Source: an uncultured Solibacteraceae bacterium (GTDB lineage Bacteria; Acidobacteriota; Vicinamibacteria; Vicinamibacterales; SCN-69-37). From it: a stretch of DNA of 48,643 nucleotides. The notes under the pieces were generated by a model, which was given only the letters and a program-made list of their open reading frames with translations, was not told the DNA's origin and searched no databases. Where the stretch lies: positions 1-48,643 of the forward strand of contig CAZFAT010000062.1 in assembly GCA_964517075.1 (NCBI GenBank), read 5' to 3'. The translations under genes were made by a program, and so were the position numbers. Shown in pieces: positions 9,991 to 11,454 of the stretch (positions within the stretch are counted from its first letter, which is position 1; each line of letters opens with the position of its first letter).

Positions 9991-11454
9991 ATGTCGACGA
10001 CTGTGTTCATCCCCACCCCGCTCCGGCCGTTCACCGACCAGCAGCCGACGGTCCAGGTCGCCGGGGCCACCGTGGGCGAGGTCCTGAAGAACCTCGTCTC
10101 GGTGCACGGCGATTTGCGCAACCATCTCTACGCGGCCGATGGCAAGCTCCGCAGCTTCGTGAATGTGTACGTCAACGACGAGGACATCCGGTACCTGCAG
10201 AAGGAGCAAACGCCGGTCAACGCCGGCGACACGCTCAGCATCGTGCCGTCGGTGGCCGGCGGATCCACGGCCGTGGACGCGCCCGCGGCCCTCCCGACAC
10301 TGACGAACGATGAAGTGCGCCGCTACAGCCGCCATCTGATCATGCCGGAGGTCGGCGTGGACGGGCAGCGCCGCCTCAAGGCCGCGCGCGTGCTGTGCGT
10401 CGGCGCCGGCGGGCTCGGGTCCCCCGCGTCCCTCTACCTCGCGGCCGCCGGCGTCGGCACGCTGGGTCTCATCGACTTCGACGTCGTGGACTTCAGCAAC
10501 CTGCAGCGCCAGATCCTGTACAGCACGGACGACGTGGGACGGCCGAAGCTGCGCGCGGCAACCGATCGGCTGCGCGGACTCAATCCCAACATCCGTGTCA
10601 TCGGCCACGAAACGAGGCTGAACTCGTCGAACGCGCTGGAGATCTTCCGCGACTACGACGTGATCGTGGACGGCGCCGATAACTTTCCGACCCGCTATCT
10701 CGTCAACGACGCGTGCGTCCTCTCGGGCAAACCCAACGTGTACGGCAGCATCTTCCGGTTCGACGGGCAGGTCTCCATCTTTGCGGCGAAGCACGGCCCG
10801 TGCTACCGCTGCCTCTATCCCGAACCGCCGCCGCCGGGCCTCGTGCCGAGCTGCGCCGAGGGCGGCGTGCTCGGCGTGCTGCCGGGCGTGGTCGGCACGA
10901 TTCAGGCGACCGAAGCGCTCAAACTGATCATCGGCGCCGGCGAGTCGCTCGTCGGACGCCTGCTGCTGTTCGACGCCCTGCAGATGAAATTCCGCACGCT
11001 CAAGCTGCAGCGCGATCCCGACTGCCCGGTGTGCGGCACTCACCCGACCGTCACCAAGCTCATCGACTACGAGCTGTTCTGCGGCATCACGCCGGCCGTC
11101 AAGGCCGCGGATCGCGGCGAGCTCGAGCCGGAGTTCGAAACGTCGGTCGTGGATTTGAAGGAGCGGCTGGACCAGGGCTCGGTCTGGCTGCTCGACGTCC
11201 GCGAGCCGCGCGAGGTCGAGATCTGCCGCATTCCCGGCGCGACGCTCATCCCGCTCGGCGAACTTCCCAAGCGGCTCGACGAGATCCCGACAGGGGCCGA
11301 CGCGCCGGACATCGTCGTCTACTGCAAGTCGGGCATCCGCAGCGCCCGGGCCGTCACCCTGCTGCGCGACAAGGGCTACAAGCGCGTCCAGAACCTCAAG
11401 GGCGGGATCATCGACTGGATCGCGAGGATTGATCCGAGTCAGAACACCTACTAG
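9991..11454 (+). CDS. fusion protein: CysO/MoaD-like ubiquitin-fold sulfur carrier + MoeZ/MoeB-type E1 adenylyltransferase + rhodanese
   Basis: Residues 1-91 (MSTTVFIPTPLRPFT...GKLRSFVNVYVNDEDIRY...GDTLSIVPSVAGG) resemble mycobacterial CysO and end in the diagnostic GG. Next comes a ThiF/MoeB domain (RYSRHLIMPEVG, VLCVGAGGLGSP, NLQRQ, CYRCLYP...CAEGGVLG, CPVCG), then a C-terminal rhodanese (VVYCKSGIRSARA). I start at the ATG at 9991 rather than the track start at 9925. Confidence 0.85.
   Translation: MSTTVFIPTPLRPFTDQQPTVQVAGATVGEVLKNLVSVHGDLRNHLYAADGKLRSFVNVYVNDEDIRYLQKEQTPVNAGDTLSIVPSVAGGSTAVDAPAALPTLTNDEVRRYSRHLIMPEVGVDGQRRLKAARVLCVGAGGLGSPASLYLAAAGVGTLGLIDFDVVDFSNLQRQILYSTDDVGRPKLRAATDRLRGLNPNIRVIGHETRLNSSNALEIFRDYDVIVDGADNFPTRYLVNDACVLSGKPNVYGSIFRFDGQVSIFAAKHGPCYRCLYPEPPPPGLVPSCAEGGVLGVLPGVVGTIQATEALKLIIGAGESLVGRLLLFDALQMKFRTLKLQRDPDCPVCGTHPTVTKLIDYELFCGITPAVKAADRGELEPEFETSVVDLKERLDQGSVWLLDVREPREVEICRIPGATLIPLGELPKRLDEIPTGADAPDIVVYCKSGIRSARAVTLLRDKGYKRVQNLKGGIIDWIARIDPSQNTY

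Follow-up and report, generated by a model that had tools for sequence, protein, structure and literature searches.

Results

Organization of the fused gene

The window analyzed here is a 48,643-nucleotide stretch of DNA from an uncultured Solibacteraceae bacterium. A gene at 9991..11454 on the forward (+) strand encodes a putative CysO::MoeZ-rhodanese pro-protein of 487 amino acids followed by a stop codon, as assigned from the open reading frame, its translation and matches to three Pfam domains. The choice of the ATG at 9991 as start codon agrees with the N-termini of homologues, which share the pattern M-x-x-x-V-x-IPTPLR. An initial reading of this DNA from its sequence (the first-pass annotation) had described a carrier which runs without a stop codon into an E1-rhodanese, and this was borne out both by the frame, which is open throughout, and by the domain limits obtained with Pfam (ThiS 7-91, ThiF 112-347, Rhodanese 387-478). 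A hairpin is present before the start codon. Searching the window with Rfam at gathering thresholds gave zero matches, so this hairpin fits no described riboswitch or leader.

Residues 1-91 (9991..10263, + strand), which end in SIVPSVAGG, were assigned as a CysO-type beta-grasp sulfur-carrier domain on the basis of Pfam, NCBIfam and CysO structures. The Pfam ThiS match scored 52.7 bits (cut-off 22.5) with an E-value of 1.6e-12, or 6e-14 when the carrier piece was searched alone, and the NCBIfam SAMP1 model matched the same domain at 61.2 bits, slightly over its cut-off of 60. The domain could be aligned end-to-end with the CysO structure 4n6e_B (chain residues 1-90, E 4.6e-18) and with M. tuberculosis CysO 3dwg_C (chain residues 1-93, E 1.9e-17), the terminal Gly-Gly of both chains falling in the same alignment column as Gly90-Gly91. 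The earlier description of these residues as CysO-like and ending in GG is therefore well founded. Residues 2-86 of the AlphaFold model show strands and helices arranged in a beta-grasp-like fashion. Modelling with 22 close homologues gave a poor result (pLDDT 67, pTM 0.49) and with 120 homologues a moderate one (pLDDT 78.3, pTM 0.63), in which the packing of the domains is uninformative.

Gly90 and Gly91 are encoded by ggc gga at 10258..10263 (+ strand, read directly) and are followed in frame, without a stop, by tcc (Ser92); the JAMM cut proposed below would fall at 10263/10264, between Gly91 and Ser92. As encoded, Gly91 has no free C-terminal carboxylate, with 396 residues continuing in frame, and judged from this arrangement the C-terminus of the carrier could become free only through proteolysis. 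Gly-Gly was kept in 121 of 121 sequences (the query and the 120 homologues listed), and in the 118 sequences which fit the search motif the residue that comes after it was small (S 73, A 24, T 11, V 7, G 3). Next comes a variable linker rich in Ala, Pro and Ser, spanning residues 92 to approximately 103 (10264..10299, + strand) and delimited from the homologue alignment and AlphaFold. Its sequence is unconserved, the spacing from GG to RYSRH varies from 13 to 36 amino acids among homologues, and pLDDT values below 50 at residues 87-99 indicate that it is disordered. An invariant GG beside a variable, disordered linker is the pattern expected of a cleavage site with its spacer. A GTG codon at Val95, preceded by GGCGGA, was considered as an internal start for a free E1 and set aside, as Val95 is variable among homologues.

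The ThiF/MoeB-type adenylation (E1) domain occupies residues 112-347 (10324..11031, + strand) and was identified by Pfam ThiF (283.9 bits, E 1e-84), by its motifs and by structure match. In the nucleotide loop GAGGLG (138-143), G138 and G140-G143 are invariant and A139 is retained in at least 90% of homologues, while the Zn-type CxxC pairs 271/274 and 345/348 and the crossover-loop Cys288 (10852-10854) are invariant among the homologues compared. The modelled E1 resembles MoeB (1jw9_B) and ThiF (1zud), with a target TM-score of approximately 0.92, and also Uba4 (6yub). The rhodanese domain at residues 387-478 (11149..11424, + strand) was recognized by Pfam Rhodanese (66.1 bits, E 4e-18) and by its active-site loop CKSGIRS, in which Cys445 (11323-11325), Gly448, Arg450 and Ser451 are invariant among the homologues compared; this domain was modelled with a pLDDT of approximately 90. 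Pfam, NCBIfam and structure matches thus agree with the first-pass assignment of a MoeZ-type ThiF domain plus rhodanese after the carrier. Only one MoeB/MoeZ model was passed, MoeB NF006444 (488.8 bits, cut-off 449), scores for MoeZ NF005902 (509.5 bits, equivalog cut-off 647) and MoeB NF005646 (525.8 bits, cut-off 633) being under threshold, and the protein is accordingly MoeZ-like by architecture without NCBI equivalog status.

Conservation of the fusion

All 120 homologues listed (72-95% identical) were 460-546 amino acids in length and had the same three domains; in the database they are automatically annotated as 'MoeB'. Of 301 genomes sampled from the phylum, 55 had an uninterrupted frame from CysO to E1, several of these being closed and single-contig; so did 61 of the 80 most similar species-level loci, with representatives in Acidobacteriota, Gemmatimonadota and other phyla. 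The first-pass annotation had raised the prospect of a sequencing error, and a sequencing or assembly error masking a stop codon after Gly-Gly might be entertained given an assembly fragmented into 424 contigs and given the relative G014, where an in-frame TAA three codons past Gly-Gly parts cysO from moeZ, so that one base change can toggle between the fused and split states. Against this, the same open frame recurs in 120 independent database proteins as well as in the genomes, closed ones included, and species-level loci just described. The fusion is thus conserved and not an artefact; for the family such an error is rejected, and we put its probability close to nil.

The relatives with split genes were also informative, in that 18 of 19 separate CysO genes bear extra residues after Gly-Gly. 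One of these tails consists of nothing but a Cys, so that translation itself already yields a protein identical to the CysO-Gly-Gly-Cys adduct. When mapped onto the E1 tree, at least 11 switches between the fused and split states were counted, at least 4 of which are forced by starred branches.

Partner genes in this genome and in relatives

The absence of JAMM, CysM and MoaE genes reported by the first-pass annotation is correct for the window but does not hold genome-wide, since all three are present on other contigs. A genome search of the kind it had suggested located a CysM::JAMM fusion, MoaD/MoaE, ThiS and ThiG, each outside the contig under study. The CysM::JAMM fusion, on contig C135, is a protein of 456 amino acids with PALP at 18-296 and Prok-JAB at 328-443. 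Its JAMM domain (84.9 bits to Prok-JAB; best solved relative 2kcq, 107 bits) has an intact E...HSHPDHPAEPSAFD motif (HxHx7Sx2D), as read from the sequence, with NECCG supplying the Glu motif. A stand-alone Prok-JAB protein of approximately 136 amino acids (84 bits) is encoded on contig C48; a third JAB match in the genome, on C106, is RadC and irrelevant here. The CysM domain scored 252 bits to enteric CysM versus 201 bits to the O-phosphoserine-specific CysM of M. tuberculosis, and as it is nearer to the enteric type its co-substrate is uncertain.

Both JAMM domains are closest to the archaeal 'desampylase' model, although they score under its cut-off, and with the narrow SAMP1 match of the carrier this raises the question of whether the main role is protein modification of the SAMP/TtuB kind, with the JAMM deconjugating, and not cysteine synthesis. 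Carriers with dual functions in sulfur transfer and conjugation are reported for Thermus and archaea (PMC11323500, PMC4443979). However, the conserved partner is a cysteine synthase and neither an E2 nor a target protein, the best structural relatives of the carrier are CysO proteins, and the rhodanese is kept together with its active-site Cys, a hallmark of sulfur transfer. We therefore give a role mainly in modification only a very slim chance.

In relatives a conserved operon on one strand has the order cysM-JAMM-cysO::moeZ. Within the phylum sample cysM lies upstream of 43 of the 55 fused genes, at a median gap of approximately 490 bp. Among the 59 fused species-level loci with enough flank, a Mec+-like JAMM gene immediately precedes the fused one in 56 and a CysM partner gene is present in 53; the JAMM also adjoins in 9 of 11 loci chosen by E1 similarity alone. 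In the genome studied here, and likewise in that of the relative G028, CysM::JAMM is not linked to the E1 fusion, and the operon evidence is for this reason borrowed from other genomes.

Neither cysE nor, in a ThiF-family search, a second E1 was found in the assembly, which is 96.9% complete and in 424 contigs, and either may simply be unassembled. Because no other E1 was found, the fused one probably also serves MoaD and ThiS; G028 carries a second, unfused E1. MoeZR is known to act on both CysO and MoaD (PMC3227635). The search for a solo CysO was likewise negative, the ThiS-family carriers of the genome being the fused one, MoaD and ThiS only. The latter two extend past Gly-Gly by 7 (MoaD) and 2 (ThiS) amino acids, and MoaD tails come and go within the order (11 of 25 genomes).

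These observations bear on whether the carrier is released at all, as its beta-grasp domain might never be cut off and might instead stay with the E1 permanently in a docking, regulatory or pseudo-substrate role. Eukaryotic E1s bear a permanent ubiquitin-fold domain of their own. Fusions of Ub-like and ThiF domains also occur beside a solo ThiS, and a different role has been inferred for them (PMC1779556). In the present case, however, the domain is orthologous to CysO over its whole length and its Gly-Gly is invariant, and no solo CysO is present in the genome even though CysM::JAMM needs one. Close relatives encode the domain as a free protein, with repeated interchange between the two states, and at the sole E1 that was detected a carrier left tethered would rival both MoaD and ThiS. 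Permanent attachment was consequently judged very unlikely.

Proposed processing and role in cysteine synthesis

Taken together, homology and gene context make it likely that the protein is a pro-protein from which a Mec+-like JAMM, cutting after Gly91, frees CysO for CysM-dependent cysteine synthesis. The first-pass annotation had left a choice between cleavage by a JAMM/Mec-type peptidase and a protein which works differently, and on comparative grounds the first is favoured and the second disfavoured. Favouring cleavage are the JAMM upstream of the fused gene in most loci of relatives (56/59 and 9/11) and the CysM::JAMM on C135, along with the tails kept by split relatives and the interchange of fused and split states among close kin.

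We infer each mechanistic step from homology and gene context. In the first, a Mec+-like JAMM would hydrolyse the Gly91-Ser92 bond, the candidate being the C-terminal domain of CysM::JAMM and the alternative the stand-alone JAMM on C48. The new Gly91 carboxylate would then be adenylated by the freed E1, and a persulfide on rhodanese Cys445 would turn the adenylate into CysO-thiocarboxylate. The CysM domain would join this thiocarboxylate to PLP-bound aminoacrylate, the source of which would probably be O-phosphoserine because no cysE was found, and after an S-to-N shift the product would be CysO-Gly-Gly-Cys. Finally, the same JAMM could cut the like bond after Gly-Gly to yield cysteine and reusable CysO. 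The fusion would then represent an extreme case of a carrier C-terminal tail, and would guarantee 1:1 synthesis of carrier and activator. Counting against the proposal, M. tuberculosis Mec+ is known for removing one C-terminal cysteine, and the JAMM would here have to accept a leaving group of 396 residues.

It is conceivable, if rather unlikely, that the cut after Gly91 is made by another agent (the C48 JAMM, another peptidase or the protein itself) and that the CysM-linked JAMM only frees cysteine from CysO-Cys. A second JAMM protein does exist in this genome, the tails of MoaD and ThiS need trimming too without any CysM linkage, and the protease that cleaves MoaX was reportedly not identified in the M. 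tuberculosis study of that protein. Nevertheless, the JAMM which travels with the fused gene elsewhere is an ortholog of the CysM-fused domain (43-66% identical), both have the C-terminal signature SWRLRxDRSxFDEE, and the bond between Gly-Gly and Cys that is the normal target is chemically the same as that between Gly-Gly and Ser.

The tethered CysO might in addition act as a zymogen-like gate on the only E1 found, occupying or blocking its carrier-binding site until the JAMM cuts, a speculative extension which we hold to be improbable. Were it true, the JAMM would govern cysteine synthesis and, beyond it, all sulfur traffic that depends on thiocarboxylates, including MoaD for molybdopterin and ThiS for thiamin (two carriers that are likewise made with tails here), and carrier maturation of a deubiquitinase-like type would be an obligatory and regulated step of bacterial primary metabolism.

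Discussion

Here a known pathway occurs in a fused and uncharacterised form, and precedents for JAMM processing are known. Our literature search found no paper characterising the CysO::MoeZ fusion itself; the first-pass annotation, too, knew of no functional characterisation of the CysO-MoeZ-rhodanese arrangement. The usual picture of a bacterial ubiquitin-like sulfur carrier is a ready-made protein whose Gly-Gly end is free, while carriers of this CysO family are almost never encoded in that form, being either fused to the E1 or variably tailed, and nearly always with a JAMM nearby. If cleavage occurs as proposed, Acidobacteriota, Gemmatimonadota and other soil phyla would routinely process a carrier precursor with an enzyme of deubiquitinase type, activate it with an E1 and strip it from its product during cysteine synthesis, which are three of the core steps of eukaryotic ubiquitin handling. 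The 'MoeB' label given to these proteins conceals the carrier as well as its connection with cysteine synthesis, and in a genome without cysE it would leave that synthesis seemingly incomplete.

Comparison with known systems

Burns et al. (2005) are said to have described the M. tuberculosis pathway in which Mec+ hydrolyses the CysO-Gly-Gly-Cys adduct. The same four activities as those of M. tuberculosis CysO, CysM, Mec+ and MoeZR (Rv1335, Rv1336, Rv1334 and Rv3206c) are predicted here, but they reside in two polypeptides, CysO::MoeZ and CysM::JAMM, encoded on separate contigs, and unlike M. tuberculosis CysO the carrier as encoded lacks a free C-terminus. Maturation of tailed carriers has reportedly been described for the thioquinolobactin carrier QbsE, made with a tail past Gly-Gly and matured by the JAMM QbsD (Godert et al. 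2007), and for Wolinella HcyS-Ala, matured by HcyD, which is also said to free the amino-acid product in methionine synthesis (Krishnamoorthy and Begley 2011). In both of these systems the JAMM lies in the carrier's own cluster and the tail is 1-2 residues, in contrast to an enzyme of 396 residues here.

Among gene neighbourhoods, the closest counterpart is operon type 4c of Iyer, Burroughs and Aravind (2006), which comprises ThiS/MoaD, E1-rhodanese, JAB and cysteine synthase and whose listing includes the acidobacterium Solibacter usitatus; the JAB was predicted there to release fused Ub-like domains (PMC1779556). The gene set is the same as in the relatives examined here, where the order is cysM-JAMM-cysO-moeZ. 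The carrier is listed in type 4c as a separate gene, however, whereas most loci here have an in-frame fusion to the E1, and in this genome the operon is dispersed, with cysM joined to JAMM instead. The Campylobacter jejuni type of Ub-like-ThiF protein also has a beta-grasp domain N-terminal to a ThiF-family adenylating enzyme, but its fused domain is distinct from ThiS, a solo ThiS is present in the operon and another role was proposed (PMC1779556), whereas the protein described here has a CysO ortholog with Gly-Gly and a rhodanese, in a genome where no solo CysO was found.

The best full-length structural match was Uba4 (6yub_A). Uba4/MOCS3 is reported to use the same thiocarboxylation chemistry with Urm1 (PMC7527816) and combines E1 and rhodanese as here, although Urm1 is separate and Uba4 has no N-terminal carrier domain. 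Cleavage of carrier-enzyme fusions is documented in D. radiodurans, where DRJAMM processes the MoaD-MoaE fusion DR2607 (PMC8832034), and the MoaX protein of M. tuberculosis is reported to be active only once cleaved (PMC4326299). The first-pass annotation should thus be corrected in this respect, as these examples give JAMM cutting of a carrier-enzyme fusion an experimental precedent. In the MoaD-MoaE fusions and MoaX, as proposed here, an N-terminal carrier of ThiS/MoaD type is released at Gly-Gly, in Deinococcus by a JAMM; the partner in those proteins is the sulfur acceptor MoaE and the pathway that of molybdopterin, whereas here the partner is the activating E1 and the predicted product is cysteine.

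Domain structure and conservation of the fused gene

The open frame at 9991-11454 (+) was translated to 487 residues, in which the Gly90-Gly91 codons (ggc gga, 10258-10263) are followed in frame by tcc (Ser92) without a stop. Pfam placed a ThiS-family domain at residues 7-91, a ThiF domain at residues 112-347 and a rhodanese domain at residues 387-478, all far over cut-off. Residues 1-91 alone scored 61.2 against a cut-off of 60 for the NCBIfam SAMP1 model, that is, barely over, and the closest NCBIfam models for the E1 part were MoeB and MoeZ. Two CysO proteins of solved structure (4n6e_B, and 3dwg_C from M. 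tuberculosis) aligned end to end with residues 1-91, the terminal Gly-Gly column being common to all three. The first-pass annotation, which had described a CysO-like carrier ending in Gly-Gly and continuing without a stop into ThiF and rhodanese domains, and had proposed HMM searches for the domain limits, was borne out by the translation, the Pfam limits and the structure alignment. The stop codon (11452-11454) lies in a four-base overlap (11451-11454) with a convergent chorismate mutase/prephenate dehydratase gene (11451-12608, -).

The three-domain architecture was present in all 120 listed best database matches, proteins of 460-546 aa with 72-95% identity whose sources were numerous independent assemblies from soil and sediment. 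Alignments of 22, and later 120, homologues among these listed matches showed Gly90 and Gly91, the GAGGLG nucleotide-loop glycines, both CxxC pairs of the E1, Cys288 of the SCAEGG crossover loop, and Cys445, Gly448, Arg450 and Ser451 of the rhodanese domain to be invariant. The linker after Gly-Gly was variable in sequence and Ala/Pro/Ser-rich, with a spacing of 13-36 residues between Gly-Gly and RYSRH and a small first residue (Ser in 73 sequences, Ala in 24, Thr in 11, Val in 7, Gly in 3); residues 87-99 had an AlphaFold pLDDT <50.

An uninterrupted full-length match was found in 55 of 301 sampled genomes of the phylum, with an unfused E1 matching from about residue 94 in many of the others. 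The 80 most similar species-level loci comprised 61 fused and 19 split cases, under record titles of Vicinamibacteria, Bryobacterales, Terriglobia, Blastocatellia, Thermoanaerobaculia, Gemmatimonadota, Armatimonadota and Chloroflexota (some MAG labels being doubtful). A sequencing error hiding a stop after the Gly-Gly codons, the case against the fusion envisaged at first pass, was excluded by this recurrence and by the uninterrupted frame in independent assemblies. Although public data contain many examples of the architecture, fused genes are labelled "MoeB" in the database, and a literature search found no paper characterising a CysO::MoeZ fusion.

Pathway partners in the same genome

The window had been reported to lack JAMM, CysM and MoaE, and a search for them elsewhere had been suggested. 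Analysis of the genome (GCA_964517075.1; 4.30 Mb, 424 contigs, 96.9% complete) confirmed their absence from the window and located all three on other contigs. On contig C135, an ORF of 456 aa (L001:1459-2829, -) combines a CysM-type PLP domain (residues 18-296; TIGR01138 at 364 bits) with a Prok-JAB domain (residues 328-443) that keeps an intact Glu...HSHPDHPAEPSAFD site. This CysM::JAMM fusion without a stop was seen only here and in the relative G028 among the sampled genomes, the two being separate adjacent genes elsewhere. A second, stand-alone JAMM is carried on contig C48; the third JAB match of the genome was RadC and was set aside. A second cysteine-synthase-like gene on C244 scored 298 bits, under cut-off.

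Three ThiS-family carriers were found in this genome: the fused domain, a MoaD adjoining MoaE (C102, L004:1495-1755, +), which ends ...PPVSGG plus ADVRTRA, and a ThiS (C364, L005:1498-1701, +), which ends ...FVGGG plus two extra residues (QP). Since MoaD and ThiS are tailed and CysO is fused, all three carriers are encoded as precursors. ThiG was located on C341. Within this 96.9%-complete genome no ThiF-family E1 was detected besides the fused gene, and the ThiS-family search returned no free CysO gene despite the presence of CysM::JAMM. The serine acetyltransferase gene cysE was not found in the genome (best match 57.5 bits, cut-off 210.65). To make cysteine, the bacterium may rely on the carrier pathway, with O-phosphoserine as co-substrate.

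Operon context in relatives

With CysM::JAMM as query against the same 301 genomes, a cysM-like gene was found upstream, on the same contig and strand, in 43 of 55 fused cases and never downstream, at a median gap of about 490 bp that matches the length of one JAMM gene. In 11 loci picked by E1 similarity only, tblastn placed JAMM immediately 5' of cysO::E1 nine times. JAMM was present in 56, and CysM in 53, of the 59 fused species-level loci with enough flank, and the order was invariably cysM-JAMM-cysO::moeZ. Only in the genome under study and G028 were cysM and JAMM both fused and unlinked from the E1; in G313, a third family member, the pathway was absent and only a plain E1-rhodanese was found. 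Naming by eye from ORF translations gave a NifS/IscS-type cysteine desulfurase gene 3' of the fused gene on the same strand in genome G178 (L021, contig C8, 249-1418, -), whose product could donate sulfur to the rhodanese; in other relatives, it gave an Rrf2-family regulator gene (L026) or a PLP-dependent sulfhydrylase-like gene of the Cys/Met metabolism type (L024) 5' of cysM.

Carrier tails and the case for release

Residues past Gly-Gly were still encoded by 18 of the 19 separate cysO genes, with Gly-Gly followed directly by a stop in one. The shortest tails were one residue long (V, R, D or C) and the longest were Cys-rich, reaching 27 residues. In G014, cysO is parted from moeZ by an in-frame TAA that comes three codons past Gly-Gly (tail GNA), and the G110 genes overlap in two different frames. 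Cys-containing tails (C, CVNRAG, SCADGE, SSCCR, RPLRCACS, CCPCGCCCCPR and a 27-residue tail ending GCCPPACGR) came from L080, L086, L091, L094, L114, L123, L138 and L029 (Terriglobia and others). Because the tail in G289 is a single Cys, its translated CysO is itself the CysO-Gly-Gly-Cys adduct, identical to the CysO-Cys pathway intermediate. MoaD ended at Gly-Gly in 14 of 25 genomes of the order and carried unconserved tails of 1-14 residues in 11.

The fused/split state changed at least 11 times on a maximum-likelihood tree built from the E1-rhodanese part of 76 loci and the window (four truncated loci excluded), at least four changes being forced by well-supported branches. Fused and free forms therefore appear to be functionally interchangeable over short evolutionary distances. 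An alternative, put forward for Campylobacter-type Ub-like-ThiF fusions, is that the fused domain is never cut and serves permanently in regulation; this reading is disfavoured by the CysO orthology of the N-terminal domain, the invariant Gly-Gly, the lack of a solo CysO in the genome and the frequent interchange of states. Most simply, a resident peptidase would trim any residues after Gly-Gly; such trimming would relax selection for a stop right at Gly-Gly, so that fusion to the next gene is tolerated or favoured. It is possible that the cut is made by a protease other than the CysM-linked JAMM, e.g., the C48 JAMM.

Hairpin before the start codon

A strong terminator-like hairpin of 13 pairs occupies window positions 9934-9973 (+; GGGCCCGGAACGG-loop-CGTTCCGGGCTC, then TTTTCTTTTC), 18 nt 5' of the ATG at 9991. 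In G028 this stem (GGGCCCGGAACG...CGTTCCGGGCCC) also precedes the orthologous gene; its loop differs. No Rfam match to the hairpin was obtained, and the whole-leader fold was unexceptional (z = -1.75). The hairpin could be the upstream gene's terminator, an attenuator or a palindromic operator.

Proposed mechanism and comparison with known systems

By analogy with the characterised M. tuberculosis pathway and the E1/rhodanese literature, JAMM would cleave at Gly91|Ser92, the E1 would adenylate Gly91, and a thiocarboxylate would form via a persulfide on rhodanese Cys445. The CysM domain would couple this to aminoacrylate, which, as no cysE was found, probably derives from O-phosphoserine, and JAMM would then free cysteine. 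Protein conjugation as the main role is very improbable and fits poorly with the conserved cysteine-synthase partner; it may be a side activity. With the sole E1 found and carriers all encoded as precursors, this genome is a good test case for possible JAMM gating of sulfur-carrier traffic.

For M. tuberculosis MoaX, a comparable cleavage of the carrier from its fused partner is reportedly implied. Experimental precedent comes from D. radiodurans MoaD-MoaE, where JAMM cuts the carrier off its fused partner enzyme (PMC8832034). The gene set of the relatives corresponds to operon type 4c (ThiS/MoaD, E1-rhodanese, JAB and cysteine synthase) in the 2006 survey by Iyer, Burroughs and Aravind, in which an acidobacterium was already listed (PMC1779556). 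CysO::MoeZ represents a known pathway in fused form, with known precedents for every step.
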